Below, one piece after another: positions 5,442 to 36,400 of a stretch of 64,000 nucleotides of DNA (position 1 is the stretch's first letter; every line of letters starts with the position of its first letter). The notes below the pieces were generated by a model. It was not told where the DNA came from. It was given only the letters and a program-made list of their open reading frames with translations, and searched no databases. The position numbers and the translations under genes are program-made. Source of the DNA: an uncultured Fibrobacteraceae bacterium (GTDB taxonomy: Bacteria > Krumholzibacteriota > Krumholzibacteriia > LZORAL124-64-63); the NCBI GenBank assembly GCA_964646035.1, contig CAZYDJ010000001.1, forward strand, positions 7,346 through 71,345, read 5' to 3'.

Positions 5442-5872
5442 CGCGCCCCCTCTTCACGTTTGTTGAGGAGGGCGAGGCTTTTCGCTCCGCCGGCCTTGGC
5501 CGCGTCAAGCACGAACACGACTTCGTCCAGCTTCACGAAATCGCTGGGGATGATGACGACGGTCTTTTCGATGCGGCCCGACAGGTTGTCCCGCAGGGCT
5601 CCTTCGAGATCCGCGGACTCTACCGGATCGCCGTTGAGAAAAAGTCCGTCGGTCGTCACCGAAACCATCACCAATTCGTCCTTCTGGTCGGCGCTGGTGC
5701 TGACAACGGTAGCACTGGCCTCCGCTCGGGTCGCGTTGACCTGGATGCCGTTGCCGAGAATGGCCGGCATAGTGATGAGGAACACCACGATCAGGGTGGT
5801 CGTCACGTCCGCCAGCGGAGTGATGTTGGCATCGTTCTGGCCACGCATGGCCGATCTTTTCACGCCGGACAT
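5438..5872 (-). CDS. exbD: biopolymer transport protein ExbD/TolR (second copy)
   Basis: A 144-aa ORF with the ExbD N-terminal motif (ITPLADVTTTLIVVFLITMP). It forms a 4-nt ATGA overlap with the downstream exbD. Confidence 0.82.
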   Translation of the reverse strand: MSGVKRSAMRGQNDANITPLADVTTTLIVVFLITMPAILGNGIQVNATRAEASATVVSTSADQKDELVMVSVTTDGLFLNGDPVESADLEGALRDNLSGRIEKTVVIIPSDFVKLDEVVFVLDAAKAGGAKSLALLNKREEGAR

Positions 5873-5887
5873 CTTGAACTCCCGCCT

Positions 5888-17789: not shown

Positions 17790-18250
17790 GACAATCCTGC
17801 CGCTGCTGGGTGGAAAAAACGTCTTCCAATGGGTTGGGTCATGCAGAATGCACGGCGGCGGCGCCCTGGAGCCCATTCCGGGAGACCCGAGACGGGAAGC
17901 CAGCAAGTGATATGCCATGGAAAACAATGGCTTATGCTTCCCAATGATGCCCTTTGATTCCTGTTTAAAACCCGATCCCCCGACACGCCCGCAGAAGCGT
18001 CGGGTAACGGGCGGAAACTCCAGGGCATAGATGGAGATTGCAGGACGCTACAGGGCGCGACAGGACGCGATGACCCTGCCCGGGGCACTCTCGACGACGA
18101 CGGGGAATTCCACTCCAGCGACCGGTTGGGAATAATTCCCCGGCCCGTTTCCGGCGGACGAATAAATGGGATTGTGGGGCGGGCGAACGAGGATTATCGT
18201 TCCCGTCAGAAAACCGAGCGATACGCGATCCTCGAAGGAGAAATTCCAGC

Positions 18251-19902: not shown

Positions 19903-22900
19903 TCATGCCTTCCCCGGTCCTTCGTTGTTCGAGGTCAATCCCAGCAACCGCTTGGCGTCCTCCATCAGCAGATATCCCACCGGAACCAGAACCAAGGTGA
20001 TCACGGTCGCGAAAAGAACACCGAACCCCAGGCTGATGGCCATCGGGATCAGGAAACGCGCCTGCAGGCTTTTCTCCAGCAGCATCGGCGTCAAGCCGGC
20101 GAAAGTCGTCAGGGAGGTCAGGACAATGGGTCGGAAACGGCGGACTCCGCTGGCCAGCACGGCCTCGTTCAACCCCATGCCTTCGGCGCGGCACCTGTTG
20201 ATGAAATCGATCATGATCAACGAGTCGTTCACCACGACTCCGGTCAGCGCTACGACTCCGAACATGCTCAACAAAGTCAGATCCCATCCCATCAGCACGT
20301 GGCCGAGGACGGCGCCGACGAATCCGAAAGGAATCGCGGACATGATGATCACCGGCTGGGCGTAGGATCGGAAAAGCACCGCCAACAGGGCATAGATGGC
20401 CAGCAGGGCCACCAGGAATCCCTGGCGCATGCTTTCGAGGGACTCCGCGCGATCCCGCTCTTCCCCCTCGAAAGAGACCCTCAGGCCCGGGAACTCGGCC
20501 AGCAGATCAGGCAATGCCTGCTTCTGCATATCGGCCAGCACCTCGCCCGCGTTGGTGACGTTCTGGTCCACATCCGCCTCGACATTGACGATGCGGCGAC
20601 GGTCGACCCTGTCGACGGAGGCGTAGCCGCGGCCGGTCTCGACAATCGCGACCCGGCGAAACGGTATCTCGGTCCCGGCCGGAGTCCGGATCATCATATT
20701 CTCCAGATCCCCGACAGAACGACGTTCTCCACGCGGATAGCGGACCATGACCCTGACATCGTCGCGTCCGCGCTGGATGCGCATCGCCTCGTCGCCATAG
20801 AATCCCTGCCTCACCTGGCGGGCCATGTCCTGCAGGGTGAGGCCCAAAGTCCTGGCCTCGGGCAACAGTGAAAGCTTCAGCTCGACCTTGCCCTCTTCAT
20901 AGCTGTCCCTGATGTCCTGCACTCCGGGATACTCTTCGAGGATCTCCTCGAGCCTGGCGGCCGCTGCGGTCAGCCGGCCGGAATCCTCGCTCGACAACTG
21001 CAGCTGCAGCGCCGCGCTGCCGTGAAAGAGATTCGAGGTGAACGTCACCGATTTCGCCCCGGTCAGCGGCCCGGTCAGTTCACGCCAGCGGGTGACCAGT
21101 TCGTTGCTCGATATGCTGCGTTTCTCGCCGGCAAGCAATTCGACGTTGATCTCCGCCTTGTGCGATCCGAGGAATGTCGTCTCGGCGGCGGTTCCCGGCC
21201 GATTGGCCCCGCCGCCTCGCGGCTGGAAGCCGATTGTCGATAGGACATGGCGGATGATGGGCTCTTCCGCGTCGTCGCGACCGCCATCGACATCCGACCG
21301 CAGTTCTTCCAGCGCCGCCTCGATCCGGCCCACCACCTTGTCGGTCTGGGCGAGGGTCGTCCCGGCGGGCATGTCGATCACGCAGAGCATGTTGTCGGAA
21401 TCGATCTTGGGCATGAACGTGAAGCGGATATGACCGCCCCCGACGAAACCCGCCAACAGCAGGATGATCGCCACCGCCGCCGCCAGCACGACTCCGCGGT
21501 GATGAGCGGCGTATTCGAGCGTCGGCCGGTAGGAGCGGTCGATAAAGAACTTGAAGCTGCGGCTGAAGCGTCCCTGCAGACCGCCGATGCTCCACCGGCT
21601 GCGTTCATCCTTCGAATCGTCGAGGTGCAGAGCGGACCTGGGGATGGTCGAAAGGTGGGCGGGGAGGATGAACAGGGCCTCCACCAGCGACACCACGAGA
21701 ACGGCGATCACCACCACGGGGACCTGCCCCATGAACTTGCCCATCATCCCTTCGACCTGCGAAAGCGGAAAGAAGGCGAAGATGGTGGTCAGAATGGCGA
21801 TGATCACCGGGGCGGCCACCTCCCGGGTTCCGATCACGCTGGCCCGCAGCCCGGTCTCGCCCTTCTCGCGATGAGTGAAGATGTTCTCGCCCACCACTAT
21901 CGCGTCGTCGACCACCAGTCCCAGAACGATGATCAGCGCGAACATCGAAATCATGTTCAGGGAGGCTCCGAAACCGGGAATTATCCAGAAGCCGCCGAGG
22001 AAGGAAATGGGAATGCCCAGGGCGACCCAGAACGCCAGCCGCGGCTGGAGGAAAAGGGATAGGCAGAAGAACACCAGCACCAGTCCGATCGCTCCGTTCT
22101 TGAGCATCAGGTTCATCCGGCCCCGGTAGATGTCGGAACGATCCGCCCAAACGCCTATTTCCACACCTTCGGGCATCGAATCGCTCTTGTTCCGGACGTA
22201 CTCGTGCACCGAGTCGGTGACCTCGAGTATTCCCTGCTCGGAAACGCGGTAGACCGACACCACCGATGCCGGACTGCCGTCGAACCACGTGCGCGTATCG
22301 ACATCCTGGAAATCGTCGCGGATGTCGGCGACCTCGCCCAGGGTCAGCCGCGTACCGTCGGGGCGGGTCAGGACGGCGATCCCGGCGAATTCATCGCCGC
22401 TGTAGCGCTGGCCCTTGGTTCGAACCAGGATTTCGCCGGCGTCGGTCTTGACGCTGCCGCCGGGCATATCGAGGCTGCCGCGACGAACCGCGTCGGTCAC
22501 CGCGTCGAAAGAGAGTCCGTAACGGCGCAGCGAATCCTCGCCGATCTCGATCGAGATCTCGTAGGGGCGGGTGCCGACGAGCTGGGCCTGGGTCACCACG
22601 CCGTCCGCGAGCAGATCGTCGCGAACCCGGTCGGCAAGCACCTTCAGCGTCTTTTCGTCCGCGTCGCCGTGGATGACGATGTCGATTGCCTGCTCGGAAG
22701 ACTCCATCAGGTTGATGACCGGTCTCTCGGTCTCCTCGGGGAAAGTGATGATCTGGTCGACGGCCTGTTTGATGTCGTCGAGGACCTTTTCGGCGTCGGC
22801 GTCGGTGTTGATCTCGGCCATCACCATTCCGGACCCCTCGACCGACAGGGAGGTGATCCGCTTGATGCCGTCGATGCTCTCGATGGCCTCCTCGACCCGG

Positions 22901-23097
22901 ATGCAGACCGATTCCTCTACTTCCTCGGGGCTGGCCCCGAGGTAGACGATGCTGACCGAGACCATGTCCAGATCGATCTCGGGGAAAAGCTCCTGCTTGA
23001 TCGTGAGCGCCGAGATGATCCCGGCCAGAACCAGGAAGATCATCAGGAGATTCGCTGCCACATGGTTGTCGGCGAACCAGTCGATCAATCCCTTCAC
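19903..23097 (-). CDS. RND family efflux transporter, inner-membrane permease (AcrB/HAE1-like)
   Basis: A 1064-aa ORF with 12 TM segments and two large periplasmic loops, typical of AcrB-like pumps. It has the LIDWFADNHV N-terminus and duplicated halves. Confidence 0.92.
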   Translation of the reverse strand: MKGLIDWFADNHVAANLLMIFLVLAGIISALTIKQELFPEIDLDMVSVSIVYLGASPEEVEESVCIRVEEAIESIDGIKRITSLSVEGSGMVMAEINTDADAEKVLDDIKQAVDQIITFPEETERPVINLMESSEQAIDIVIHGDADEKTLKVLADRVRDDLLADGVVTQAQLVGTRPYEISIEIGEDSLRRYGLSFDAVTDAVRRGSLDMPGGSVKTDAGEILVRTKGQRYSGDEFAGIAVLTRPDGTRLTLGEVADIRDDFQDVDTRTWFDGSPASVVSVYRVSEQGILEVTDSVHEYVRNKSDSMPEGVEIGVWADRSDIYRGRMNLMLKNGAIGLVLVFFCLSLFLQPRLAFWVALGIPISFLGGFWIIPGFGASLNMISMFALIIVLGLVVDDAIVVGENIFTHREKGETGLRASVIGTREVAAPVIIAILTTIFAFFPLSQVEGMMGKFMGQVPVVVIAVLVVSLVEALFILPAHLSTIPRSALHLDDSKDERSRWSIGGLQGRFSRSFKFFIDRSYRPTLEYAAHHRGVVLAAAVAIILLLAGFVGGGHIRFTFMPKIDSDNMLCVIDMPAGTTLAQTDKVVGRIEAALEELRSDVDGGRDDAEEPIIRHVLSTIGFQPRGGGANRPGTAAETTFLGSHKAEINVELLAGEKRSISSNELVTRWRELTGPLTGAKSVTFTSNLFHGSAALQLQLSSEDSGRLTAAAARLEEILEEYPGVQDIRDSYEEGKVELKLSLLPEARTLGLTLQDMARQVRQGFYGDEAMRIQRGRDDVRVMVRYPRGERRSVGDLENMMIRTPAGTEIPFRRVAIVETGRGYASVDRVDRRRIVNVEADVDQNVTNAGEVLADMQKQALPDLLAEFPGLRVSFEGEERDRAESLESMRQGFLVALLAIYALLAVLFRSYAQPVIIMSAIPFGFVGAVLGHVLMGWDLTLLSMFGVVALTGVVVNDSLIMIDFINRCRAEGMGLNEAVLASGVRRFRPIVLTSLTTFAGLTPMLLEKSLQARFLIPMAISLGFGVLFATVITLVLVPVGYLLMEDAKRLLGLTSNNEGPGKA

Positions 23098-24260
23098 TGA
23101 TTCCCACCTCCGGCGACCCGCACCTTCATCCCCTCGGTCACGACGTCCAACTGCGAGACGACGACTCTTTCACCGGGCTCGATATCGCTGAGGATCAGCG
23201 CCTCTTCGCGGTCCATCCGCACGATATCGACAGCCTGGATGCGGAGCAGATCCTGATCGTCGACGGTCCAGACCGTCCCGTCCGGGCGCAGCCCGGAACG
23301 CGGTATGCCTCTCGCTCCGGGAACGGTGCGCCCCTCGATCGCCGCGGATACGAACATCCCGTCCAGAAGCCGGGCGCCGGCCGCCGCCTCGCCCTCGCCG
23401 TCGACAGCTATGATCACGTCGACCATGCGGGAGCGTTCGTCCAGGACGCCGCCGACGCGGACGATCCTCCCCGACCAGCGTCGCTCGCTGCCGGCGAAGT
23501 CCGTCGAGATCTCGACCCGGGCGCCCGGCCCGTCTCCGGGCAGGTCGAAGAACGCCAGATCCGCATCGGAAAGCGGCACGGTCACCTCGGCCGTTTCGGC
23601 GGCGTAGATCGAAGCCAGCTCGGAACCGGCGCGGACGTACTGTCCGACATCCACCGATTCTTGCACTACGCGACCGGCGAAAGGAGCCGTGATGGTGCAG
23701 CGTTCGAGGTCGAGCCTGGCCTTGGCCAATCCGGCCCCGGCGGAAGCCAGATCGGCTCGCGCGAGGTGGAGTTGCGGCTCGTGCCTGACCAGAGAGTTCG
23801 GCTCCGGAAGCGGTTTGGCGGCGCCTTCCTTCACCTGGATCCACTCGCGCAGGGCGATTTCCGCCTCCTGCTCCGCCCGCGCCATTTCGTATTCTCCGCG
23901 AGCGACCTGGGCCGCCGCCATTTCCACGGCCAGCTCATAGTCCGCGGTATCGATCCGCAACAGGGTATCGCCGGCCGCGAACGATCCGCCGGAGGCCAAT
24001 GCGGGAGACTTGCCGAGCACCACTCCGGAAACCTGGGGCACGATCGAGATCCGTTCGCGGGCCGCGACATTGCCGTAACCGGTCACCACTACCCGGGGCG
24101 TCTCGTCGGTGACCGTGAAGATTTCGACCACCGGCAGCACTGGCGAGGCCGGACGCTTGGGAGGGCTCGGCCGCAGCGCGATCATGGCCACTGCTCCGAT
24201 CAGGCCGACAGCGACAATGGCCAGCGGCAGCACTCCCCGGGGCAAACTCATTCGGCTCAT
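23094..24260 (-). CDS. RND efflux periplasmic adaptor / membrane fusion protein (HlyD/AcrA family)
   Basis: A 388-aa ORF with an N-terminal TM/signal anchor, a coiled-coil region, and lipoyl/beta-barrel-like segments. It forms an ATGA overlap with the RND pump gene. Confidence 0.85.
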   Translation of the reverse strand: MSRMSLPRGVLPLAIVAVGLIGAVAMIALRPSPPKRPASPVLPVVEIFTVTDETPRVVVTGYGNVAARERISIVPQVSGVVLGKSPALASGGSFAAGDTLLRIDTADYELAVEMAAAQVARGEYEMARAEQEAEIALREWIQVKEGAAKPLPEPNSLVRHEPQLHLARADLASAGAGLAKARLDLERCTITAPFAGRVVQESVDVGQYVRAGSELASIYAAETAEVTVPLSDADLAFFDLPGDGPGARVEISTDFAGSERRWSGRIVRVGGVLDERSRMVDVIIAVDGEGEAAAGARLLDGMFVSAAIEGRTVPGARGIPRSGLRPDGTVWTVDDQDLLRIQAVDIVRMDREEALILSDIEPGERVVVSQLDVVTEGMKVRVAGGGNQ

Positions 24261-24275
24261 CAGCCAGCTCCTAGA

Positions 24276-25766
24276 TCAGTTGCGCGGCGCATCCGCGACA
24301 TCGGTTCTTGTTCCCGCGGCGGAATCCTGATCCGGCCGCACATCCCACGGACCGCCCAGGGCCTGGATCAGGTCCACCCGCACTCTTCTGACCAGCCCCT
24401 CGGCCCGCAAAAGTTCACTTTCCGCCAGATGCAACTGACGCCGCGCATCCAGTACTGTCAGATAGGGATCCAGGCCTTGCCGGTATCGATCCCGGGCAAC
24501 GTCCAGCGACCGCTCGGCGTGGCCGACGCTTTCGCGCAGGAAGCCGCGGCGAATGTCCTGGAGCCGGCCCGCGGTCAGGGCAGCCTCGACATCCCGGAAT
24601 CCGTTGAGCAGCACTCCGGCATAGGCGGCCCGCGCCTGCTCGGCCCTTCCTTCGGCCGCGTCGACTTGGGCGGTGCGGGCGCCGCGGTTCAGCAACGGCA
24701 TGGTCAGATTACCGACCAGACTCCATACCGAGGCTCCGTCGGTGATCAGATTATCCAGTTCGGGCGATGAATATCCTGCGTTTCCGGTCAGTGACAGGCG
24801 CGGGAAAAGATCGGCCTTCGCGGCGCCGATCCTTTCGCCGGCCGCCCGCAACGACATCTCGGCGGCGACAACGTCGGGACGACGCCCGAGCAGATTCGCC
24901 GGCAGACCGGCCGGGACCGGCTTCAATTCGGGCAACTGGGCCAGCGCCTCCCCCTCGGCGGCGATCCGGCCCGCGGGATACCTGCCCACGAGAATCTCCA
25001 ACGCCCTTCTGGCCACAGCCAGATCCTCTTCCCACTGCACCCTGCGGGCCCGGGCCGACGCCAGCGCCTGCCGGGACTGATGCACATCCAGCGAAGCCGA
25101 GACGCCTCCGGCATATCGATCCTCGACCATATCCAGGCTGGACGCCCAGCTCTCTTCGGTGCGAACACTCAGGTCCCTCTGACCTTCCGCCTCGCTCACC
25201 ATCAGCCAAGCCCGCACCACATCCGCCGCCAGTCCCTGCCTGACCGCGATCCTGTTCGCCTCGACGGCCATCAGATCCGCCCAGCCGGCGCGACGCGTGC
25301 GGGAGAGACGACCCCAGAGATCGAGTTCCCAGGACGCATTCGCCGAGGCGTCGTAAAGAGTGCTGTAGATCGAGCCGCGCCCACCGAAACGGGCCATCGT
25401 GAGCTTGCTCCGACTGGCGCTACCCCCGATCTCGACCGAAGGCAGGCTGTTCGACCCGGCGGCCTTCAACTGCGCGCGGGCCTCGGTCACCCTGCCCGCC
25501 GCGGCCATCAGATCGGGGCTCGCCGCGAAAGCTTCCTCGACCAGCGAATCCAGGCGGGCGGAGCCGAAATCACGCCACCATCCGTAGGCCGGATCATCGC
25601 CGACAACGCTATCGGCGGCATGATCGGCAACGTATCCGCCCGGCACCGGCACGTCCGCGGGACGCACGTAATCCGGACCCACCGCACATCCCGCCGCGGC
25701 GATCAGCGCGGCCAGCGCGACCGGCGCGACGACGCCTCCGATCACCGTTTTCAGGCTGAGGTTCAA
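24276..25766 (-). CDS. efflux outer-membrane factor lipoprotein (TolC/NodT family)
   Basis: A 496-aa ORF with lipobox LIAAAGC and two tandem TolC-like coiled-coil/barrel repeats. Confidence 0.85.
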   Translation of the reverse strand: MNLSLKTVIGGVVAPVALAALIAAAGCAVGPDYVRPADVPVPGGYVADHAADSVVGDDPAYGWWRDFGSARLDSLVEEAFAASPDLMAAAGRVTEARAQLKAAGSNSLPSVEIGGSASRSKLTMARFGGRGSIYSTLYDASANASWELDLWGRLSRTRRAGWADLMAVEANRIAVRQGLAADVVRAWLMVSEAEGQRDLSVRTEESWASSLDMVEDRYAGGVSASLDVHQSRQALASARARRVQWEEDLAVARRALEILVGRYPAGRIAAEGEALAQLPELKPVPAGLPANLLGRRPDVVAAEMSLRAAGERIGAAKADLFPRLSLTGNAGYSSPELDNLITDGASVWSLVGNLTMPLLNRGARTAQVDAAEGRAEQARAAYAGVLLNGFRDVEAALTAGRLQDIRRGFLRESVGHAERSLDVARDRYRQGLDPYLTVLDARRQLHLAESELLRAEGLVRRVRVDLIQALGGPWDVRPDQDSAAGTRTDVADAPRN

Positions 25767-26443
25767 GATCCTACCCCTTGTTCCGTCTCGCCGGCGAATG
25801 CCTCGGCTCCGGTTGCGCTGAGCCGCGAGACGTGATCGACAACCATTTCGATGAATTCCTCGTGATCATCGGGGAAGATGCCGGCTGAAATCGCGTCCAC
25901 GTCCACGCCCAGGCCCGTCCGCCGCGCATACCAGCGCATCATGAAGAAGAGCAGTTGTCCGATGGCGCTCATCACGATCCAGCCCATGCGCCTGGGCAGG
26001 ATGTCGGGCCGGGCTTCGGCCAGGATCTCCATCATGATCCGCTGGACCGGTTGGATCAATTCGGCCTGCAGAATACCTGACGCGTGCCCCTGGGTATGGG
26101 CTTCGCGTGCGAAAAGCCGCAGCGAGGTCTCCCAATGCGAGGGGTCGAGGGTGTCGCGGATGTGGGCGTCGATCACGGCGCGGATAATCGCTTCGAGATC
26201 GGGCGTTTCGCTGCGGGCGCGCAGTTCCTCCAGCGAAGAAATGATGCGGTCGCGCTTGGGCGCCATTCTGCGCCGGATGACCTCCTCGTAGAGGCCTTCC
26301 TTGCCCCGGAAGTGATAGTTGACGGCGGCCAGATTGGCCTCCGCCTCGCCGGCGATTTCACGAACGGATACTCCGTCCAGTCCTCTTTCGGCGAAGAGCC
26401 TTTCGCCGACATCGAGCAACCGTTCCCGTGTCGATTCCTTCAT
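25763..26443 (-). CDS. TetR/AcrR family transcriptional regulator
   Basis: It has an N-terminal HTH (RERLLDVGERLFAERGLDGVSVREIAGEAEANLAAVNYHFRGKEGL). Its stop overlaps the outer-membrane-factor start (ATGA). The start is assigned to MKESTRE; the ORF track starts 10 codons earlier. Confidence 0.8.
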   Translation of the reverse strand: MKESTRERLLDVGERLFAERGLDGVSVREIAGEAEANLAAVNYHFRGKEGLYEEVIRRRMAPKRDRIISSLEELRARSETPDLEAIIRAVIDAHIRDTLDPSHWETSLRLFAREAHTQGHASGILQAELIQPVQRIMMEILAEARPDILPRRMGWIVMSAIGQLLFFMMRWYARRTGLGVDVDAISAGIFPDDHEEFIEMVVDHVSRLSATGAEAFAGETEQGVGS

Positions 26444-26482
26444 CTGGAACATCCCCCGCGGCCTGAGAATCACATCAATATA

Positions 26483-27221: not shown

Positions 27222-29192
27222 CTACTTCACGAGAGACAGCTTGCGAACCTGGTATACCTCGGAGCCGATACGCAGGCGCGCGAAGTACGTGCCGCTGGCC
27301 AGCTGCTGGCCCGCGGAGTTGCGGCCGTCCCAAGTCATGGCGTATTCGCCGGCCTCAAGAGTGCCGTTGTGCAGGGAGGTGATCATCTCGCCCTTGATGT
27401 TGTAGATGTTGAGCTGGGCAAGATTCGACCGCGTGAGGACGAACTTGATCTCCGTCTGCGGGTTGAACGGGTTCGGAGCGATGGACTGCAGGCCGCCCGC
27501 GGGCAGCACGCTGGGCAGTTCGTCGCCGATGCCCGTGATCGGGGCCAGGACATGGTCGTCACGATACGGGGTGATCTGGAAATCGCCGTACTCGTAATCC
27601 ATGAATCCGGTGACCGACACGAAGTCGCCGATGGTCGGCTGATAAGTCAGCTCGATGTTCGGATCGACACAGACGCTGTCCGCGCGGACATGGGTGTCGG
27701 AGATGATGTACTCACCGTAGCCCAGTGTGTCCATGACCGTCGAGATGACGGTGCGGACCCAGACGCTCTCGTAGGCTTCGCCGTAGACGCTGTCGCCGTC
27801 TTCCAGGGTATCGTCGCGCAGATAGCGCGTCGCGACCTTGGCCGCCCGGGGCATCGTATTGTTGTAGGAAACGATGTTCACGGCTGCGGAACCGGCCGAG
27901 GAGTGCGGGGCCATCTCGGTCAGGCCGTAGTACTCGTCGATGTAGCCGCCGACCTCTACCAGGTCGCCCTGGTAGACGGAGCCGTAGGCGCCGGAGCCAT
28001 CATAGACGAGGAGGCCGGAGAACTGGCCTTCGCCGTCCTGCATGATGAACTTGCTGACCGTTCCCGCGTCGCCGGTGCCGGCGGTAACCACGCCGCGCAC
28101 GTTGACGACCTTGCCGTAGTAGGACGAACTCTGGGAAAGGCTGTCCGGATGGGCGTACTGGACGTCGTAGATCGGAGTGAAGCCTACCGCGATCTCGTAC
28201 CAGCCGCCGGGGGCCGCGCCGGGATTGTTCACGGTCTGAGCGGCTGTGTCGGTGGCCTGCACGTAGTAGTCGATCTGAACGCCGGTGTGGGTTGCCGGGA
28301 TCGTGCCGGACCAGAGGTTGCCGCCGACGTTGGCCATGGCCACCGAGTTGAAGATGCCGGTGCTGTCGCCGGCGTCGTCGCGGTAGTACAACATGGCCGA
28401 AGTGATGCCGGCGTCGTCGGTGATCGTCGCGGAGACGGTGACCACGTCGCTGGCCTCAGGCGTCCAGTTATCGCAAAAGACGCCGTCGATGATCGGAGCG
28501 GTGTCGCCCAGAGGATTCTCGATGATGTCGCTCTGGCGGCGGGGCTTGAGCTCGATCAGCCCGTTGTAGCTCACGCAGATGCCGGAGGCGAGATACTCGT
28601 CGCCGTCGGCCATGGTGCCCAAGTCGATGCCGGTGTCCTTGTCGATGTAGACAAGAATGGTGTCTGTGCCGACGAAGAGCTTGAAATCACCGCTCGCGGT
28701 GGGAGACGTCCAGTTCTTCTCCACCACGGTGCCGATCACACCGATCAGGGAGCCGACGCTCTCGTAATCGGCCAGAACCGCGTCGATGCCGAGGATCGCG
28801 GGATCGTATTCGGTCTCGAGACCCATGGGAACGAAGTTGAAAGGAGGCTGCAGCTGGATCTCGCCGCTGTAGGCGCCGACGGTGCCGGTGATCTGGACGC
28901 GATCGCCGTACACGAAGGTGTAGCCGGCGGTGGAGGTGTCATAGAAGCCGACGCCGCCTGTGTCGTCCTGGATGTAGTGGGTGCCGGTGTTGTAGACGCC
29001 CTTGGGCGAGGTGATCTTGCCCTCGATAGTCACGACTTGGCCGTAATAGGTAGCCGTCGCATCGGGCGTGCCGTCCAGGTTATAAACCTGGATGTCGTCA
29101 ATGTCGACGGTCTGGGCGGAGGCCGCCCCGGTAAGCGCCAGCAGGAAGAGGGCTGCCAGCGCCACATTCACTAACTTCTTCATTCTTGCCAT
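27222..29192 (-). CDS. secreted T9SS cargo protein with three tandem OB-fold (YhcR/ExeM-N-terminal-like) domains and a type-A Por C-terminal sorting domain
   Basis: The signal peptide is MARMKKLVNVALAALFLLALTGAASA. A module is repeated three times (YYGqVVtieGkvT....yIQDdtGG....ge.q.). The C-terminus NPFNPQTEIKFVL...LNIYNIKGEMI...MTWDGRNSAGQQLASGTYFARL..VRKLSLVK is a textbook T9SS CTD. Confidence 0.75.
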   Translation of the reverse strand: MARMKKLVNVALAALFLLALTGAASAQTVDIDDIQVYNLDGTPDATATYYGQVVTIEGKITSPKGVYNTGTHYIQDDTGGVGFYDTSTAGYTFVYGDRVQITGTVGAYSGEIQLQPPFNFVPMGLETEYDPAILGIDAVLADYESVGSLIGVIGTVVEKNWTSPTASGDFKLFVGTDTILVYIDKDTGIDLGTMADGDEYLASGICVSYNGLIELKPRRQSDIIENPLGDTAPIIDGVFCDNWTPEASDVVTVSATITDDAGITSAMLYYRDDAGDSTGIFNSVAMANVGGNLWSGTIPATHTGVQIDYYVQATDTAAQTVNNPGAAPGGWYEIAVGFTPIYDVQYAHPDSLSQSSSYYGKVVNVRGVVTAGTGDAGTVSKFIMQDGEGQFSGLLVYDGSGAYGSVYQGDLVEVGGYIDEYYGLTEMAPHSSAGSAAVNIVSYNNTMPRAAKVATRYLRDDTLEDGDSVYGEAYESVWVRTVISTVMDTLGYGEYIISDTHVRADSVCVDPNIELTYQPTIGDFVSVTGFMDYEYGDFQITPYRDDHVLAPITGIGDELPSVLPAGGLQSIAPNPFNPQTEIKFVLTRSNLAQLNIYNIKGEMITSLHNGTLEAGEYAMTWDGRNSAGQQLASGTYFARLRIGSEVYQVRKLSLVK

Positions 29193-29462: not shown

Positions 29463-31040
29463 TCAGGACTCGGATATGACTGAGCGGCCGCTCATCTGCT
29501 CCGGTTTGGCCAGCTCCAAAAGGTCCAGAATCGTGGGCGCGATGTCCCGCAATCCGAAACTTCCCGCGGCGATCACGTCATTGCGGCCGGCGAATTTCTC
29601 GGCCACCAGAATCAAAGGCACTTCATTGAGGGTGTGATTGGTCAGCACCCGGCCGCTTTCGTCGATCATCTCCTCGCAGTTGCCGTGGTCGGCGGTAACC
29701 AGCATGGCGCCGCCGCGGTCCAGGACATCGGACACGATCCCGGCCAGAAGCCCGTCGAGGGTCTTGATCGCCGACACGGCCGCATCGAGTACACCGGTAT
29801 GACCGACCATGTCCCCGTTGGCGAAGTTGACGACGATCAGATCGTGCTCGCCGGCGGCCACGGCCTCGCGCACGACGGCGGCGACGGCCGGGGCGCTCAT
29901 CTCCGGCTGGAGATCGTAAGTGGCCACCTGCGGCGACGGGACCAGGCGCCGGTCCTCGCCGGGAAAAGGCTCCTCGCGTCCGCCGTTGAGGAAATAAGTC
30001 ACGTGGGCGTATTTTTCGGTTTCAGCGGTGCGCAGGTTGCGCAGGCCGTTGGCCTCCAGAACGTCGGCCAGGATTCCCTGATGCACCTGGGGCGGGAAGA
30101 GCACCGGCAGATCGAGGTTCTCGTCGTAGAGGGTCATGCAGAGATATGCGACCGACGGCCGCAAAGGGCGGTCGAAGCCGTCGAAATCATCTTTGTTGAA
30201 GGCCCAGGTCAGTTCGCGGGCCCGGTCGGCCCGGAAGTTCCAGAAGAAGACGCCGTCGCCGTCTTCGATCACTGCCAGCGGGGATCCGTCCGCGCCGACG
30301 ATGACGTGGGGCTCGACGAACTCGTCGGTGATTCCCGCGGCGTAGGAATCGCGGACCGCCTGCTCGGCGTCGCCGGCCTTTTCGCCTTCGCCGTGAACCA
30401 GGGCGCGCCAGGCCTTCTCCACCCGGGCCCATCTCTTGTCGCGATCCATGCCCCAGTAGCGGCCGCCGACCGATACGATCCGGCCGGCGCCCAGGCGATC
30501 GAGTTCCGCCTGCAATTCGCCCAGATAACGAAGTCCGCTTTCCGGGTCGGTATCGCGGCCGTCGAGGAATGCGTGTACGCAGATGTCGGCGATGCCGGCG
30601 TCCCTGGCCTCGCGCACGATGCCGTAGAGATGTTCGGTGTGGGAATGGACTCCGCCCGGAGAGACCAGCCCCAGCAGGTGCAGTCTGCCTTCCTTCCGCC
30701 GTACCGCGGATACGAAATCGCGCCAGGCCGGCACCTCGGACAGGCCGCCGGCCGCCATTACCCGGCTGACCCGGTTGAGGTCCTGGTCGATCACCCGGCC
30801 GGATCCGATGGTCAGATGGCCCACTTCGCTGTTGCCCATCTGCCCCTCGGGCAGACCCACGGCGGGGCCGCAGCAGACAAGGCTGGTCCAGGGATAATCC
30901 ACGAAGAGCGACTCGAAACAGGCGGGGCGGGCAAGCGCCACCGCGTTGCCCCGGTCGTGTCCGGGACCCTCCGGACGCAGGCCGACGCCGTCGAGGATGC
31001 AGAGCACCAGTGGTTTGCGCGTCGATCCGTCAGACATCAT
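29463..31040 (-). CDS. gpmI: 2,3-bisphosphoglycerate-independent phosphoglycerate mutase
   Basis: A 525-aa ORF with LCILDGVG, GNSEVGHLT and TADHGN motifs of the iPGM family. Confidence 0.92.
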   Translation of the reverse strand: MMSDGSTRKPLVLCILDGVGLRPEGPGHDRGNAVALARPACFESLFVDYPWTSLVCCGPAVGLPEGQMGNSEVGHLTIGSGRVIDQDLNRVSRVMAAGGLSEVPAWRDFVSAVRRKEGRLHLLGLVSPGGVHSHTEHLYGIVREARDAGIADICVHAFLDGRDTDPESGLRYLGELQAELDRLGAGRIVSVGGRYWGMDRDKRWARVEKAWRALVHGEGEKAGDAEQAVRDSYAAGITDEFVEPHVIVGADGSPLAVIEDGDGVFFWNFRADRARELTWAFNKDDFDGFDRPLRPSVAYLCMTLYDENLDLPVLFPPQVHQGILADVLEANGLRNLRTAETEKYAHVTYFLNGGREEPFPGEDRRLVPSPQVATYDLQPEMSAPAVAAVVREAVAAGEHDLIVVNFANGDMVGHTGVLDAAVSAIKTLDGLLAGIVSDVLDRGGAMLVTADHGNCEEMIDESGRVLTNHTLNEVPLILVAEKFAGRNDVIAAGSFGLRDIAPTILDLLELAKPEQMSGRSVISES

Positions 31041-31443
31041 GCCTCCTGAGTGTACCGGCGGGCAGGACCCACAGATCGGTCCTGCCGAGAGCCATCACGA
31101 GCATCCGGTCCAGGGGAAATACGTTGCGGCGTTCCGGACCGGGGGCCGAGTCGTTCGATTCCGGTTCCGCAGTCGAACGGGCCACAAGATATGAACCGGC
31201 CTGCAGTACCGCACGGCAGACTTCTCGCCCGTCCGGCAGGAATTCCGAGATGCGCAGCCGGCCGAGCCGGATCACGACCTCTAGGCCGGGTTCGGGGCGA
31301 AAGATCTGATTGGCGGCCAAGGGAACGACCCGGGCCTCACGTCCCAGACTGCGGCTGAGCCCCGGTCTGCCCGAGAAGATCCTGGCAGCCCGGCCCAACG
31401 CCAGTTCACCAGCGCCGGCGGACTGCGGCATATCCGTCTTCAA
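31030..31443 (-). CDS. small protein with a cyclic-nucleotide-binding-like (CAP effector domain-like) beta-roll; hypothetical
   Basis: A 137-aa ORF. Its segment GRLRISEFLPDGREVCRAVLQAGSYLV resembles a cNMP-binding domain core. It overlaps the gpmI start by 11 nt. Confidence 0.35.
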   Translation of the reverse strand: MKTDMPQSAGAGELALGRAARIFSGRPGLSRSLGREARVVPLAANQIFRPEPGLEVVIRLGRLRISEFLPDGREVCRAVLQAGSYLVARSTAEPESNDSAPGPERRNVFPLDRMLVMALGRTDLWVLPAGTLRRHDV

Positions 31444-31519: not shown

Positions 31520-31548
31520 TTGACATGCACCGGGGTCGACTCTAACGT
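31520..31548 (+). promoter_or_regulatory. sigma70-like promoter (TTGACA-17 bp-TAACGT) driving the TPP-riboswitch transcript
   Basis: TTGACA is at 31520-31525 and TAACGT at 31543-31548. They sit just upstream of the riboswitch P1. Confidence 0.4.
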
Positions 31549-31554
31549 AGCCGC

Positions 31555-31635
31555 ATATCCGTTAGGGGTGGTCGCAAGACCTGAGAGATACCCTTGGAAC
31601 CTGAACCGGGTCATTCCGGCGTAGGGAAACGTGAT
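31555..31635 (+). promoter_or_regulatory. TPP (thiamine pyrophosphate) riboswitch, THI element
   Basis: The sequence is cgttaGGGGTGgtcgcaagaCCTGAGAgatACCCttgGAACCTGAaCcGGgTcATtCCgGCGTAGGGAAacg. It matches the conserved THI-box cores (GGGGUG, CUGAGA, ACCC..GAACCUGAUC.GG.UAAU.CC.GCGUAGGGAA). The expression platform contains the hairpin AGGGGCCGG-N9-CCGGCCCCT and an AGGAGG SD before the ATG at 31730. Confidence 0.85.
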
Positions 31636-31729
31636 GAGAACCACGCGACCCACACGTGCCGGCTTCCTGGGAGGGGCCGGTTTTCTGATGCCGGCCCCTG
31701 TAAGACCGTCCTTACAGGAGGCTCTCGTA

Positions 31730-34309
31730 ATGCTGTCCCAGTCCTTTCTCCGGCGAAGCCGCACCGGTGGATTCGTCGCTCCCCTGTTGATCCTGCCGAG
31801 CGCCCTGCTGCTGATCCTGTTGACGAGTTACGCCGCCTTCAGCGCCGAAACCGGGGAAAGCACGGTCCTGCTCGGGCGCGTGGCCGACGCCGCCAGCGGC
31901 GCGCCGCTGGCCAACGCCAACGTTTCGGTCCAGGGCTCGACCGCGGGCACCATGACCACGAACGACGGCTGGTTCTCCCTGCGCGGAGCGCCGGACAGAC
32001 CCTATACCCTGGTCGTCTCCTTCATCGGATACGAAACGTTGCTGCTGGCCGTGGATCCCGCCTCGATCGCGCCGGGCGAGTTCCTGGAGCTGGCTCTCCA
32101 GCCCACCGTCTACGCGACGGAACAGATCGTCGTGACGGCTTCTCGCTACGGATCGGACCTGCACCTCAGCCAGACGAACATCCCCCGCGAGGAACTGCAG
32201 AGAAGAATCGCCGACACCGATATCCCGCTGCTGCTCGAGGACACGCCCGGGCTGTACGCCAGCAGTGATGCGGGCAACGGCATCGGCTACACGTACCTGA
32301 AGATCCGCGGCTTCGACCAGCGGCGCGTCGGCGTGATGGTCAACGGCATCCCCCTGAACGATCCCGAGGACCACCAGGTCTACTGGGTTGATCTGCCCGA
32401 CCTCGCATCCTCGCTCGAGGACGTCCAGGTGCAGCGCGGGGTCACCAACTCCCTGGGCGGGATGACAGCCATCGGCGGAACAGTCAACCTGGTGACCGAC
32501 ATCCTCTCGGTGGAGCCCCGGGCCAGGGCCGCCGCCTACGCCGGAAGCTACGGCACGGCCAAGCAGTCGCTGCTCTACAACACCGGGCTGGTCAACGACC
32601 GGTTCAGTTCGGCGATGCGCATCAGCCATCTCGAGAGCGACGGCTACCGCGACCGGTCGGGCAGCGACCAGTGGGCCGTGTTCTGGAGCGGCCGCTACCA
32701 GACCCCGAACAGCGCCACCCAGATCAACATCTACACCGGACGCGAAAAGACCCTGCACGCCTGGGACGCGATCGACGAGGACACTCTCGAAAACGACCGC
32801 ACATACAATCCCGAAACCTACGCCAACGCCGTCGACGACTTTCGGCAGCCCCATTACGAGCTGCACCACCGCTGGAACGTGGGCGACAACCTCATGCTGA
32901 AGAACTCGGCCTTCGTCATCCACGGCGAGGGATTCTACGAGAACTTCAAGGATGACCGGCAGGCCGGCGATTTCGGTCTCGACCGCTCCGACTTCCTGGG
33001 TCTCGATCCCGAGGCCGAAGTCGATCTGGTGCGGCGCAAGTGGGTCCGCAAGGATCAGGTGGGTTGGGTGCCCCAGCTGATGATGGACCATTCCGGCGGC
33101 CGAACCGTGATCGGAGGCGACGTCTACACCTTCCACAGCAATCATTGGGGAGATGTGATCTCGGTCGAGGGCTTCACCCCCGACGACATGGTCGGAGGGC
33201 TGAAGTACCACGAGTACACCGGCGACAAGGTCGCGTGGTCGGCCTATGTGAACGAACGCTGGGAGGCCCTACCCGGATTCACCCTGATGGCCGACCTGCA
33301 GTTCCAGCATAAGCGCTACGAATTCATGCAGGAACCGGCGGGCAATTTCCAGGGCGATCTGCGCAACGCCTACACCGTCGATTATGACTTCTTCAATCCC
33401 AAGGGCGGCTTCTTCTGGGATCTGCCGCGCGATCTGCTCGGCGGCGACACGGGGCTCTACGGTCACGTCGGACAGACCCATCGCGAACCCGCCGACAGCG
33501 ATCTCTTCGACACCTGGGACGGCCCGGACGACCTGGGCGTCCAGCCGTTGTTCAGCCGTTCCGAGCCGGTGGACGAGAACGGCGACGGCAGCGTCGACTA
33601 CGTGCGGTGGTACGATCCGCAGGTGCGGCAGGAGAAGGTGCTTAACTGGGAAGGCGGATTCAGCTGGCGTACGCGGGCGGTGTCCCTGACCGTCAACGGC
33701 TATTGGATGGATTTCGAGGACGAAATCGTTCCCTACGGCGCAGTGGACGATGACGGCCTCGCCATCCGCGGCAACGCCGACAAGACCCTGCACCGGGGAA
33801 TCGAAATGGGGCTGGCGGCGCAGATCACGCCGGTCCACCGGCTGCGCCTGGCCGCGTCGAAGAGCTGGGACGAGTACGATCGGTTCAGCGTTTTCGAGGA
33901 TGTCTGGGACTGGGATACCGGGGAATACCTGGGAACCACCGAGACGGACTACTCCGGCAATCCCATCCCGCTGTTCCCGGACCACCTGCTGAGCGCGACC
34001 GTGGAATCGGATCTCGGCCCCCTGGACACCAGCGTTCGCCTGCGTCGAGTCGGCAGGCAGCATCTCGACAATACCGGTCGAGACAATCGGGTCATCGACG
34101 CCTACACTACCGTGGATCTGGGCCTGAGCGCCGATCTGGCCGCCCTGGGCGGCGAGTCGCTTTCCGGAGCGTTTTTCGATTTTCGCCTGCGCAACCTGTT
34201 TGATGTGGAGTACGAGACCAACGGATATTACGATCCTTGGGCTGGAGGGAACATGAGGATTCCCGCCGCCAAACGTAATTTCCTGGCTGGGATCAGGGCT
34301 GCTTTCTGA
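31730..34309 (+). CDS. TonB-dependent outer-membrane receptor (CarboxypepD_reg-like N-domain, plug, 22-strand barrel); predicted thiamine/TPP-precursor uptake
   Basis: The start was chosen at the ATG with an AGGAGG RBS (signal peptide MLSQSFLRRSRTGGFVAPLLILPSALLLILLTSYAAFSA). The ORF track begins 33 codons earlier, inside the riboswitch. A TonB-box-like region and plug motifs are present (IVVTASR, GIPLND). It lies directly downstream of the TPP riboswitch. Confidence 0.85.
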   Translation: MLSQSFLRRSRTGGFVAPLLILPSALLLILLTSYAAFSAETGESTVLLGRVADAASGAPLANANVSVQGSTAGTMTTNDGWFSLRGAPDRPYTLVVSFIGYETLLLAVDPASIAPGEFLELALQPTVYATEQIVVTASRYGSDLHLSQTNIPREELQRRIADTDIPLLLEDTPGLYASSDAGNGIGYTYLKIRGFDQRRVGVMVNGIPLNDPEDHQVYWVDLPDLASSLEDVQVQRGVTNSLGGMTAIGGTVNLVTDILSVEPRARAAAYAGSYGTAKQSLLYNTGLVNDRFSSAMRISHLESDGYRDRSGSDQWAVFWSGRYQTPNSATQINIYTGREKTLHAWDAIDEDTLENDRTYNPETYANAVDDFRQPHYELHHRWNVGDNLMLKNSAFVIHGEGFYENFKDDRQAGDFGLDRSDFLGLDPEAEVDLVRRKWVRKDQVGWVPQLMMDHSGGRTVIGGDVYTFHSNHWGDVISVEGFTPDDMVGGLKYHEYTGDKVAWSAYVNERWEALPGFTLMADLQFQHKRYEFMQEPAGNFQGDLRNAYTVDYDFFNPKGGFFWDLPRDLLGGDTGLYGHVGQTHREPADSDLFDTWDGPDDLGVQPLFSRSEPVDENGDGSVDYVRWYDPQVRQEKVLNWEGGFSWRTRAVSLTVNGYWMDFEDEIVPYGAVDDDGLAIRGNADKTLHRGIEMGLAAQITPVHRLRLAASKSWDEYDRFSVFEDVWDWDTGEYLGTTETDYSGNPIPLFPDHLLSATVESDLGPLDTSVRLRRVGRQHLDNTGRDNRVIDAYTTVDLGLSADLAALGGESLSGAFFDFRLRNLFDVEYETNGYYDPWAGGNMRIPAAKRNFLAGIRAAF

Positions 34310-34322
34310 TGGAAGGAAAAGC

Positions 34323-35027
34323 ATGAAAGAGAGAGGAGCCAGTTCTCTCATCTTTCCGATCGGCGGGCGCCGGGCTGTCGTGCTGTGCGACGGCCCCCTG
34401 CCTCCGTCCCCCCTGATCGAATATTGGCTCGACGGAGCCGAAATGTTCATCTGCGCCGACGGGGCCGGATATCCTTATGATGAGATTCCCCGGCCGCCGG
34501 ACATCGTCATCGGCGATTTCGACTCCCTGAGCGGCCATTTGTTGTCGGGACGTTCCGGGCCCCGCTATCTGCAGTCGACCGACCAGGACACCACCGACTC
34601 CGAGAAGGCCCTGGTCTTCTGCGCCGGCGAAGGCGTCGCTGAAGTTGTGCTGCTCGGCGCCACCGGCTGGCTGATCGACCACACCCTGTACAACGTCTCG
34701 CTCCTCGAGAAATTCGCCGACCGGCTGCGGATCTGCCTTTCGGATCGCTTCAGCAGCACGGTGCGTATAGGGCCCGGGGAATCGACGCACTGGCATCTTC
34801 CGGCCGGGACGCCGTTCTCTCTCAGCCCGCTGACCGGCAATGCGAAAGGCGTCACCATCGCCGGCGCCGAGTTTTCGCGGCGCGAGTTCGACATCGACGG
34901 CAAAGGTCCGGCCACGATCTCCAATACCGTCGCCGAGCCTCCCCTCTTCCTTGAAATCACTTCCGGATCGCTGCTGTTCACCGTGCGCCACGATCTCTCG
35001 GAGCAGGGCCATACGGTGGTCCCCTGA
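34323..35027 (+). CDS. thiamine pyrophosphokinase (thiamin diphosphokinase)
   Basis: A 234-aa ORF with the TPK motifs ICADGAG, IGDFDSL and DQDTTDSEKAL. It lies in the riboswitch-controlled operon. Confidence 0.75.
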   Translation: MKERGASSLIFPIGGRRAVVLCDGPLPPSPLIEYWLDGAEMFICADGAGYPYDEIPRPPDIVIGDFDSLSGHLLSGRSGPRYLQSTDQDTTDSEKALVFCAGEGVAEVVLLGATGWLIDHTLYNVSLLEKFADRLRICLSDRFSSTVRIGPGESTHWHLPAGTPFSLSPLTGNAKGVTIAGAEFSRREFDIDGKGPATISNTVAEPPLFLEITSGSLLFTVRHDLSEQGHTVVP

Positions 35028-36400
35028 TGACCGCGCTCTCCGTCTACATCATCTTCCTGGTCTACGCGGTTCTGCGCCTCTTCCGCTCCCCTTCCCGCAA
35101 CGCCGCCGACTACATTGTCGCCGGCCGCCGCCTGACCCTGCCCGCGTTCATCGCCACGATGGTCGCGTCCTGGTACGGCGGCATCCTCGGAGTGGGCGAA
35201 TACGCCTGGAGCTACGGAATCAGCAATTGGCTCGTCTTCGGAGTGCCCTACTATCTCTACGCCGGCGTCTTCGCCCTCTTCCTGGCCGCCCGGGCACGCC
35301 GCAGCCGGGTCCTGACTCTGCCCGACCTCCTGGAACAACGCTACGGCCGGCCCGCCGCCCTGGTCGGCGCCGGCACGCTCTTCGTGATGACGGTCCCGGC
35401 CGCCTATGTGCTGATGCTCGGAGTACTGCTGCGGCTGGCCACCGGCTGGCCGGTATGGGTCGGCGTCCTGGTCGGGACGACGTTCTCGGTCAGCTACGTT
35501 TTCCGCGGCGGCCTGAAGGCGGTCGTCGGAACCGACGCGGTCCAGTTCGTCCTGATGTTCCTGGGATTCGCCGTCCTGGTGCCGGCCTGTGTCCTGAAAT
35601 ACGGAGGATGGGAATTCCTGGGCTCCGCCCTGCCCGCGAAACATCTGGTCTGGGACGGCGGACGCGGAGCCCAGGCCGTCGCAGTCTGGTACTTCATCGC
35701 CCTGTCCACACTGATCGAACCGGCCTTCTACCAACGATGCTACGCTGCGCGCAGCGAAGGCGTCGCCCGCCGCGGCATCCTCATCTCGATCCTCTGCTGG
35801 ATGTTCTTCGACCTGCTGACCACGACGGCCGGACTCTACGCCCGGGCCGTCATCCCCGACCTGGCCGATCCGGTGACGGCTTTCCCCGCACTCGCAGCCC
35901 GCACCCTGACTCCGTTCTGGGAGGGAGTCTTCACCGTCGGGCTGCTGGCCACCATCATGTCGACCGTGGACACCAACGCCCTGCTCGCCGCGGTGACCGG
36001 CGGCCGCGACATCCTGTTGCGCAGCCGGGGCGACGAAGCGGCCATGGCCGAGAACGCGCCCGCCTCCCTCTCGATAATCCGCTGGAGCCTGCTGGCCGCG
36101 GCCGTCCTGGCCTCGGGGATGGCGATCTGGTCCGGTTCGGTGGTCAAGCTCTGGCATCACCTCGGCAGCGTGGGCACTCCGGTGCTGCTGCTGCCGGTGG
36201 CGCTGGCCCACTCTTCGGTCCGGGTTCCGCGCAAAGGGATCCCGTTGGCGATGACGCTCGCCGGCGGAGTCAGTCTGGGCTGGCTGTTGTTGGGCGGCGG
36301 GGAGAACTGGCTGGGAATCGAGCCGATCTTTCCCGGCCTGGCCACATCGGTCGTCTCGATGTCAGCGATAATGATCCGGGATCGCCGGGGATCCGCCTGA
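35027..36400 (+). CDS. sodium:solute symporter family (SSF) transporter, predicted thiamine (ThiV-like) importer
   Basis: A 457-aa ORF with about 13 TM helices and SSF-like N-terminal motifs. Its start overlaps the TPK stop (TGATG). Confidence 0.75.
   Translation: MTALSVYIIFLVYAVLRLFRSPSRNAADYIVAGRRLTLPAFIATMVASWYGGILGVGEYAWSYGISNWLVFGVPYYLYAGVFALFLAARARRSRVLTLPDLLEQRYGRPAALVGAGTLFVMTVPAAYVLMLGVLLRLATGWPVWVGVLVGTTFSVSYVFRGGLKAVVGTDAVQFVLMFLGFAVLVPACVLKYGGWEFLGSALPAKHLVWDGGRGAQAVAVWYFIALSTLIEPAFYQRCYAARSEGVARRGILISILCWMFFDLLTTTAGLYARAVIPDLADPVTAFPALAARTLTPFWEGVFTVGLLATIMSTVDTNALLAAVTGGRDILLRSRGDEAAMAENAPASLSIIRWSLLAAAVLASGMAIWSGSVVKLWHHLGSVGTPVLLLPVALAHSSVRVPRKGIPLAMTLAGGVSLGWLLLGGGENWLGIEPIFPGLATSVVSMSAIMIRDRRGSA

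Follow-up and report, generated by a model that had tools for sequence, protein, structure and literature searches.

The closest known system to the locus described here is the OMthi-PnuT-Tnr3 module of Bacteroides, whose genes are regulated by thiamine pyrophosphate (TPP) riboswitches and are needed for growth in low thiamine; they are found at BT2390 and BT2396-BT2397 in B. thetaiotaomicron and as a single operon in B. uniformis (PMC5613172; bioRxiv 10.1101/867226). TPP-regulated TonB receptors (omr/Omr1) and transporters of the sodium:solute symporter (SSS) family (thiV) are also known, each separately (PMC2211319; PMC12442306). Here we analyzed a 64,000-nucleotide stretch of contig CAZYDJ010000001.1 from an uncultured bacterium of the GTDB lineage Krumholzibacteriota (hereafter the window), in which a TPP riboswitch is followed by genes for a TonB-dependent receptor, a thiamine pyrophosphokinase (TPK) and an SSS-family symporter. 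We propose, with a probability of roughly 0.8, that these genes constitute a three-gene thiamine scavenging operon that is switched off by TPP. Its promoter, aptamer and genes are as follows.

31520..31548, plus strand: sigma-70-type promoter, with the -35 element TTGACA at 31520-31525, a 17-nt spacer and the -10 element TAACGT at 31543-31548
31554..31644, plus strand: TPP riboswitch aptamer, a THI element whose P3 is short, Rfam RF00059
31730..34309, plus strand: TonB-dependent outer-membrane receptor, 859 aa, predicted to be a thiamine receptor analogous to OMthi/Omr1
34323..35027, plus strand: thiamine pyrophosphokinase, 234 aa, beginning 13 nt past the receptor stop codon
35027..36400, plus strand: SSS-family (PF00474) symporter, 457 aa, predicted to be Na+-coupled and to transport thiamine across the inner membrane

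A covariance-model scan returned the aptamer as the sole above-threshold Rfam match in the window, with RF00059 aligned over its full length (model positions 1-105) at 67.5 bits against a gathering threshold of 54.3 (E 4.1e-11). The element contains the CUGAGA and AACCUGA...GCGUAGGGA motifs, and its boundaries agree with a preliminary description of this DNA, made from the sequence alone, which had recognized a THI-box at 31555-31635. Its identity as a TPP aptamer is clear from this match; it is predicted to bind TPP and thereby to change expression of the genes downstream. The same description had noted a TTGACA-17-TAACGT promoter just ahead of the aptamer, and this sequence is indeed present. 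A simple sigma-70 consensus scan did not call a promoter at 31520-31548, where the -10 element matches TATAAT at 3 of 6 positions; we discarded this negative verdict on the strength of phylogenetic footprinting. When the upstream DNA of 13 related loci (55% mean identity) was aligned, CTTGAC and CTAnnnT were found to be invariant and their spacing fixed. The invariance of both hexamers across these loci is good evidence of a genuine promoter, with a transcript that begins at the edge of the aptamer, and the predicted transcription start lies at about 31555, the 5' edge of the element. Bacteroidetes promoters are of the TAnnTTTG type; at the thiamine operon, Krumholzibacteriota-like metagenome-assembled genomes (MAGs) have instead TTGACA and TAnnnT elements of the classical kind, spaced 17-18 nt apart.

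Pfam and NCBIfam domains agree with the families to which the three genes had initially been assigned, and an independent gene caller run on the source metagenome scaffold (MUDA16-1 scaffold_93) returned products of 859, 234 and 457 aa, confirming that the receptor starts at the ATG at 31730 and not at 31631. The receptor carries CarboxypepD_reg (PF13715/PF13620), Plug (PF07715, 58.6 bits) and beta-barrel (PF00593, 87.3 bits) domains. Reading its translation by eye, we noted a hydrophobic N-terminus ending in AFSA, taken as a signal peptide, a TonB-box-like EQIVVTASR at residues 131-139 and a C-terminal phenylalanine (...IRAAF). The protein falls far below every NCBIfam equivalog cut-off, all its matches being partial, and NCBIfam holds no model for the OMthi/Omr1 family; by analogy with the Bacteroides module we predict that it is an OMthi/Omr1 counterpart. 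The TPK scores 104.9 bits against the TIGR01378 equivalog cut-off of 76.4 and 64.1 bits against TPK_catalytic (PF04263), and it contains the GDFDS and DQDTTDSEKAL motifs by which it had first been identified; its B1-binding domain is weak (17.2 vs 22). The TPK stop codon overlaps the symporter start by 1 nt in a TGATG junction at 35025-35029, again as the preliminary description had reported. TonB (TonB_C, 437 aa), ExbD, ExbD and ExbB are encoded in a cluster at 3724-6622 on the minus strand, 25 kb from the receptor, so the receptor can be energized by a system encoded in the same window, and this cluster is likely to be the one that does so. A 1038-aa TPR/YfiO-like protein (6652-9768) is encoded next to it.

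To place this arrangement in a broader context we turned to relatives of the symporter, whose homologues number in the thousands and are all annotated merely as 'sodium:solute symporter family protein'. Family members are carried, among others, by the complete chromosomes OY843751.1 and OZ245046.1. Searching one genome per GTDB species yielded at least 587 confirmed relatives, and the loci of the best 80 of the 587 were searched with the three proteins of the window and a THI-box pattern, Rfam being rerun on pattern-negative loci. Eleven of these loci were cut off upstream and uninformative, leaving 69. Rfam confirmed all nine of the pattern-positive loci that were rechecked (9/9), and it recovered three riboswitches that the pattern had missed (L031, L043 and L064). 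The best 80 come from Krumholzibacteriota, Latescibacterota, Gemmatimonadales, Zixibacteria, Ignavibacteriales, Eisenbacteria, KSB1, Fermentibacteria and unnamed MAGs, and all of these source lineages belong to the Fibrobacteres-Chlorobi-Bacteroidetes (FCB) superphylum. A TPP riboswitch was present upstream of the genes in 64 of the 69 informative loci, as in the window, and the order riboswitch-receptor-(TPK)-symporter was kept in 62, where the receptor lies directly behind the riboswitch; a TPK lies between receptor and symporter in 32. The arrangement is thus conserved across phyla, and the fact that the linkage persists down to 47-50% protein identity is our main reason for assigning the symporter to thiamine uptake. 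This comparison of gene neighbourhoods, which the preliminary description had itself put forward, supports its view that the locus follows the logic of an OMthi-TPK-PnuT module in which an SSS transporter replaces PnuT.

The family divides according to the presence of the kinase. TPK intervenes in every member at least 56% identical to the window symporter, as well as in L045 and L046; in a more distant clade (~50% identity) from Zixibacteria and Ignavibacteriales, the receptor is followed directly by the symporter and TPK is absent from the operon. We looked downstream of the symporter in this TPK-less clade for TPK or other thiamine genes, and the recurrent open reading frame (ORF) there proved to be greA. 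This gene adjoins the 3' end of the symporter on the same strand, sometimes overlapping its stop codon, at L041 (8388-8864), L044 (7483-7959), L050 (8345-8821), L056 (4123-4617), L031, L053, L066 and L077. The adjacency is probably conserved housekeeping synteny, the alternative being co-transcription behind the TPP riboswitch.

Several loci depart from the common order. At L074, from Eisenbacteria (1501-5362), the order is riboswitch-symporter-receptor, with the riboswitch directly before the symporter, and at L029 (134-1481, 7001-8257) the symporter is separated by 5.5 kb from a riboswitch and receptor encoded on the other strand. In five of the 69 informative loci (L028, L040, L042, L057 and L061, with the symporter at about 7001-8350 in each) the symporter stands in an unrelated context, with no riboswitch or receptor within 7 kb. 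Its neighbours there include an acyltransferase, RNase HII, a response regulator, an FG-GAP protein and a xanthine-dehydrogenase-like protein, and a search of the five loci for divergent TPK or receptor genes found none. These five symporters keep every candidate substrate-site residue discussed below, and they may be constitutive thiamine importers or otherwise regulated.

We propose the following course of events. Transcription from the sigma-70-type promoter would enter the TPP aptamer directly. The receptor, energized by TonB-ExbBD, would bring thiamine and possibly also its phosphates over the outer membrane, the symporter would carry free thiamine over the inner membrane together with Na+, and TPK would convert it to TPP in one step, with TPP then feeding back on the riboswitch. 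TPK accepts intact thiamine only, and none of thiD, thiE, thiM or tenA is present in the operon; together these two points argue for thiamine as the transported substrate. Domain scans detected no thi biosynthesis domain in any sizeable ORF of the window, as the preliminary description had stated, a result that has no bearing on the rest of the genome, and no PnuC-family domain in any ORF scanned. The operon does not imply thiamine auxotrophy, which the preliminary description had predicted as an alternative to scavenging, since B. thetaiotaomicron possesses an analogous module alongside a complete biosynthesis operon (PMC5613172).

We next considered the family to which the symporter belongs. 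It matches SSF (PF00474) at 90.1 bits against a gathering threshold of 22.8, and its AlphaFold model (pLDDT 82.9, pTM 0.83) adopts the SSS/LeuT fold. The Na2-site Ser/Thr pair in transmembrane helix (TM) 8, S312/T313, is invariant in the family and aligns with S340/T341 of PutP and with MST/MSS in PanF and CHT, which makes Na+ coupling likely. Among characterized proteins, the symporter's best-scoring match in sequence is E. coli PanF (26% identical across 443 aa, 88 bits), and a profile built from the family scores PanF at 96.3 bits and SAR11 ThiV at 52.7 bits. Orthology with PanF (TIGR02119, 84.2 vs a cut-off of 328) or with PutP (TIGR02121, 65.2 vs 515.5) is ruled out.

ThiV was compared using SAR11_0811 and reference SSS sequences taken from the supplement of PMC11452348. 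The window symporter and SAR11 ThiV share 25% identity across 271 aa (61 bits), which brings ThiV no nearer to it than PanF, and SAR11 ThiV itself groups with eukaryotic SSSP proteins (132 bits). In core TM6, members of the ThiV/SSSP group carry a conserved Phe (position 254), with His or a polar residue next to it on the C-terminal side (PMC11452348), where the window symporter has Ile-Glu (LIEPAF vs LFHQGN by MAFFT, the loop alignment being uncertain). The QRxYAA and STVDT motifs are common to the two proteins. On the basis of the sequence scores and the missing signature residues, we rejected membership in the SAR11-type ThiV/SSSP subfamily. The term 'ThiV-like', which the preliminary description had applied to the symporter, therefore holds in one sense and fails in another: it fits the loose original meaning, in which a THI element precedes the gene of a Na+ symporter homologous to PanF (Rodionov 2002, cited in PMC2211319), and it does not extend to the SAR11 subfamily, given the score of 61 bits and the lack of the Phe-His pair.

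When the family profile was searched against all PDB sequences, the best match was the bacterial high-affinity choline transporter sfCHT (9rws; 76.7 bits, full length), with the human hCHT1 at 52 bits, and both ranked above SGLT, SMVT, SMCT and NIS. A Foldseek search with the AlphaFold model gave human CHT1 (8j74) as the top match, with TM-scores of 0.82-0.85 to CHT1 and SGLT2; because these two scores are about equal, the structure search cannot tell the substrate apart. In CHT1, choline is held in a cage of W62, Y67, Y91, W141, W254 and W406, and E73 holds the second quaternary nitrogen of hemicholinium (PMC11589582); residue equivalences among CHT proteins are given in the sfCHT preprint (bioRxiv 10.1101/2025.09.30.678764). 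In our HMMER alignment the CHT1 residues correspond to the window symporter as follows.

CHT1 W62: window W49
CHT1 Y91: window Y75
CHT1 W406: window W376
CHT1 E73: window E58
CHT1 W141: window V123 (V/A123 in the family)
CHT1 W254: a gap or E231
CHT1 VGGGY Cl--binding joint loop: two residues shorter in the window symporter

Three of the five essential cation-pi residues of CHT1 are thus retained (W49, Y75 and W376), and W49, Y75, W376, E58, E231, D262 and D315 are essentially invariant across 79 family members, including the riboswitch-less ones. With an aromatic cage of three residues out of five and a Cl- loop shorter by two, membership in CHT/SLC5A7 was rejected. Since choline, a quaternary cation, is what the nearest relatives of solved structure transport, a cation such as thiamine would suit the symporter as substrate, and we infer from the alignment, as inference only, that the cation-pi site may have been enlarged to take a bigger organic cation, as thiamine would require. 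We give even odds to the wider reading that this unnamed SSS subfamily, found in at least 587 species of Krumholzibacteriota, Latescibacterota, Gemmatimonadota, Zixibacteria, Ignavibacteriales, Eisenbacteria and others, is a dedicated inner-membrane thiamine transporter recruited independently of PnuT and of ThiV/SSSP. In this reading a partly CHT-like site, built from W49, Y75 and W376, enlarged by the loss of two Trp and supplemented by the acidic E58, E231 and D262, would bind the thiazolium cation.

Several observations weigh against intact thiamine as the substrate. SAR11 ThiV, likewise of the SSS family and preceded by a TPP riboswitch, transports HMP (4-amino-5-hydroxymethyl-2-methylpyrimidine) and not thiamine (PMC11452348); the argument from TPK is weaker for the distant half of the family that lacks the kinase; five members stand in unrelated contexts; and the likeness to choline transporters is tempered by an SGLT2 TM-score equal to that of CHT1 and by a PanF profile score (96 bits) above that of CHT. 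One alternative is therefore that the symporter imports a moiety or breakdown product of thiamine, be it HMP, 4-amino-5-aminomethyl-2-methylpyrimidine (AmMP), its N-formyl derivative (FAMP) or thiazole, as has been proposed for SAR11_0811 ThiV, a suggested HMP symporter from cells whose uptake is specific for HMP (PMC11452348). The QRxYAA and STVDT motifs shared with ThiV and the absence of TPK from about half of the family's operons would suit such a substrate, but TPK, to which the symporter is adjacent or translationally coupled in the window as well as in 32 related loci, uses only intact thiamine, and none of thiD, thiE, thiM and tenA is found linked. That the symporter is no closer to ThiV than to PanF and lacks the Phe-His signature of the HMP/thiamin SSS proteins also speaks against a ThiV-like substrate, and the invariance of the candidate site residues over the clades with and without TPK suggests a single substrate for all. 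We consider import of a thiamine fragment improbable.

It could further be argued that the symporter is an ordinary carrier of pantothenate, proline, choline or another compound that neighbours the operon by chance, leaving a riboswitch regulon of receptor and TPK alone. That PanF is its best characterized relative and that five family members occur in unrelated contexts would be expected of such a carrier. However, a start codon that overlaps the TPK stop, adjacency in 62 of the 69 informative loci from at least eight candidate phyla at identities down to 47-50%, a riboswitch placed directly before the symporter at L074 and PanF and PutP equivalog scores far under their cut-offs are all difficult to reconcile with chance, and we regard this explanation as very improbable. 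Thiamine itself is our preferred substrate for the symporter.

We then examined how TPP might control the operon. The leader between aptamer and receptor contains the following elements, among them the GC hairpin (31658-31681) and the AGGAGG Shine-Dalgarno (SD) sequence (31716-31721) that the preliminary description had already picked out.

31658..31687, plus strand: terminator-like hairpin H1, GCCGGCUUC at 31658-31666 pairing with GGGGCCGGU at 31673-31681, then UUUUCUG
31673..31698, plus strand: alternative helix H2, GGGGCCGG at 31673-31680 pairing with CCGGCCCC at 31691-31698
31697-31718, plus strand: small hairpin, CCUGUAAG/CUUACAGG
31716-31721, plus strand: Shine-Dalgarno AGGAGG, 8 nt before the receptor ATG at 31730-31732

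H1 was found by a terminator scan as a helix of nine pairs, six of them G-C, and a C-rich segment, CUUCCUG (31663-31669), sits within its 5' arm. Among 13 close leaders, 90.6% of the cells of this helix are paired, compared with 26-54% in slid-partner controls. A hairpin with a U-run occurs at the matching position in 22 of 30 leaders from the TPK clade, often with 6-8 U, and in 10 of 29 from the other clade. H2 and H1 are mutually exclusive, and the U-tract falls in the H2 loop. The RNAalifold consensus of the 13 leaders includes H2 with eight pairs, two of them showing compensatory changes, and the helix is also part of the minimum free energy (MFE) structure of the platform, with a B:C duplex energy of -21.6 kcal/mol. 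It joins the 3' arm of the terminator to a conserved segment farther downstream that repeats the 5' arm (columns 134-167 of alignment A2). [quoted passage not shown] The duplex of C-rich segment and SD (A:SD) has an energy of -16.3 kcal/mol (z -2.5 vs shuffles) in the window, where it is strong, as it also is in L001, L002, L024 and L014. RNAalifold additionally predicts, over the 13 leaders, a long-range pairing between the invariant GGGG(U) of the aptamer and the C-rich segment, which plausibly acts as an anti-terminator.

Collectively, these features suggest that expression is probably regulated by the conserved terminator and, in the window, by sequestration of the SD as well. When TPP is scarce, the G-rich P2 strand of the aptamer would pair with the C-rich segment at 31663-31669, so that the terminator hairpin would be blocked, the SD left free and the operon expressed. 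Upon TPP binding the aptamer would close and set the C-rich segment free; this segment could then complete the terminator hairpin (31658-31681 and the U-run) or, in transcripts that have been read through, pair with the SD while H2 forms. Either outcome of TPP binding would shut expression off.

Not all of the evidence favours this mechanism. The U-run of the window is short (UUUUCU), H1 is supported mostly by conservation, with only one covarying pair among the 13 leaders, roughly half of the close relatives show weak A:SD pairing, and the fold of the full leader is no more stable than that of shuffled sequence (z -0.89, a value uninformative alone). Purely translational control is a serious rival to the terminator model, although we think it rather unlikely: the GC hairpin, with merely UUUU and then CUG behind it, would not be a working terminator, and the switch would act by hiding the SD. 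The platform MFE, in which the SD is sequestered in the A:SD duplex, is in line with such control, as is the behaviour of the Bacteroides transport riboswitches BtTPP2 and BtTPP3, which act at translation and leave the mRNA level unchanged (bioRxiv 10.1101/867226). The leaders of Zixibacteria and Ignavibacteria, with a conserved AAUCUUGC...GCGAGGUU anti-SD/SD pair and no U-run, can be cited on the same side. Against it stand the 90.6% pairing of H1 among close leaders and the hairpin with a U-run, in many cases of 6-8 U, at the matching position in 22 of 30 TPK-clade leaders; at 44-57 nt upstream of the start codon this hairpin is too distant to mask the SD on its own. We retain the terminator, with added SD sequestration in the window, as the probable mechanism.

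The Zixibacteria/Ignavibacteria leaders (alignment A4) form a distinct group in their own right. They are 78% identical to one another (L041, L049, L051, L053, L056, L059, L060, L062, L065, L069, L071 and L077) and have in common a conserved element, CAGGACGGAAUCUUGC, that could base-pair with the SD region GCGAGGUU. In place of a terminator they appear to use the anti-SD pair AAUCUUGC/GCGAGGUU, a different expression platform attached to the same aptamer and operon.

The genes around the operon are unrelated to thiamine and comprise, on the divergent side, a 137-aa hypothetical protein and a cofactor-independent phosphoglycerate mutase and, on the convergent side, a hypothetical protein of 321-337 aa. 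The divergent pair (29463-31443, minus strand), in which the 137-aa protein is without a Pfam match, is transcribed away from the riboswitch promoter region and is syntenic in 11-12 of the closest loci (L001, L002, L003, L005, L007, L010, L014, L021, L024, L037 and L075). Elsewhere in the window, a 2302-aa ORF (11019-17927, minus strand) has a coding-like GC3 of 0.84 and, as its sole Pfam signal, a weak C-terminal FlgD_ig-like domain. The same type of domain also ends its 653-656-aa neighbour (27222-29192, minus strand) and the FG-GAP protein of L040, and it may represent a lineage-specific C-terminal sorting or secretion tag. Between these, a resistance-nodulation-division (RND) efflux operon (19903-26473, minus strand) encodes a TetR regulator, an outer-membrane factor (OEP), an HlyD-family adaptor and an AcrB-family pump.

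Both the riboswitch and the way the locus salvages thiamine are well known, indeed textbook material, and would not surprise specialists. In the literature that we searched we found no description of a TPP-regulated TonB receptor, an SSS transporter and a TPK in one operon, or of such a system in these phyla. The new element, modest though concrete, is an unnamed SSS subfamily, large and coherent, that is distinct from PnuT and from SAR11-type ThiV and is nearly always tied to a TPP riboswitch and a TonB receptor. If the assignment is correct, many entries now labelled 'sodium:solute symporter family protein', from uncultured FCB-group bacteria of soil, sediment and marine environments, could be annotated as thiamine transporters. 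Models of vitamin B1 auxotrophy and cross-feeding, which now track thiB, thiT, pnuT, thiV and omr1, would improve, and the SSS fold would have been adapted a second, independent time to a thiamine-related cation, with the choline transporters supplying a structural hypothesis.

Set against known transporters, the window symporter has the fold and the Na2 motif in common with PanF and PutP, and differs from both in TM1, where it has WYGG and they carry motifs of their own. With CHT it likewise shares the MSxxD motif of TM8 and the Na2 site, whereas identity is only about 19-20% and the genomic context is that of thiamine and not of choline. With SAR11 ThiV it has in common the SSS family, TPP-riboswitch control and predicted uptake of thiamine or a vitamer; in a comparison that covers the SAR11 ThiV sequence only, the window family differs in being nearly always accompanied by a TonB receptor and often by TPK. 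The likeness to the Bacteroides module extends to a TPP riboswitch before a TonB receptor, then an inner-membrane transporter and a TPK, within the same FCB superphylum, and hence to the same predicted sequence of outer-membrane uptake, inner-membrane uptake and one-step activation to TPP. The two systems differ in gene order, which in the window is receptor-TPK-transporter, in the promoter, which in the window is of the TTGACA/TAnnnT type, and in the inner-membrane step, for which Bacteroides uses the small, channel-like PnuT and the window a non-homologous SSS symporter of about 13 helices, predicted to be driven by Na+.

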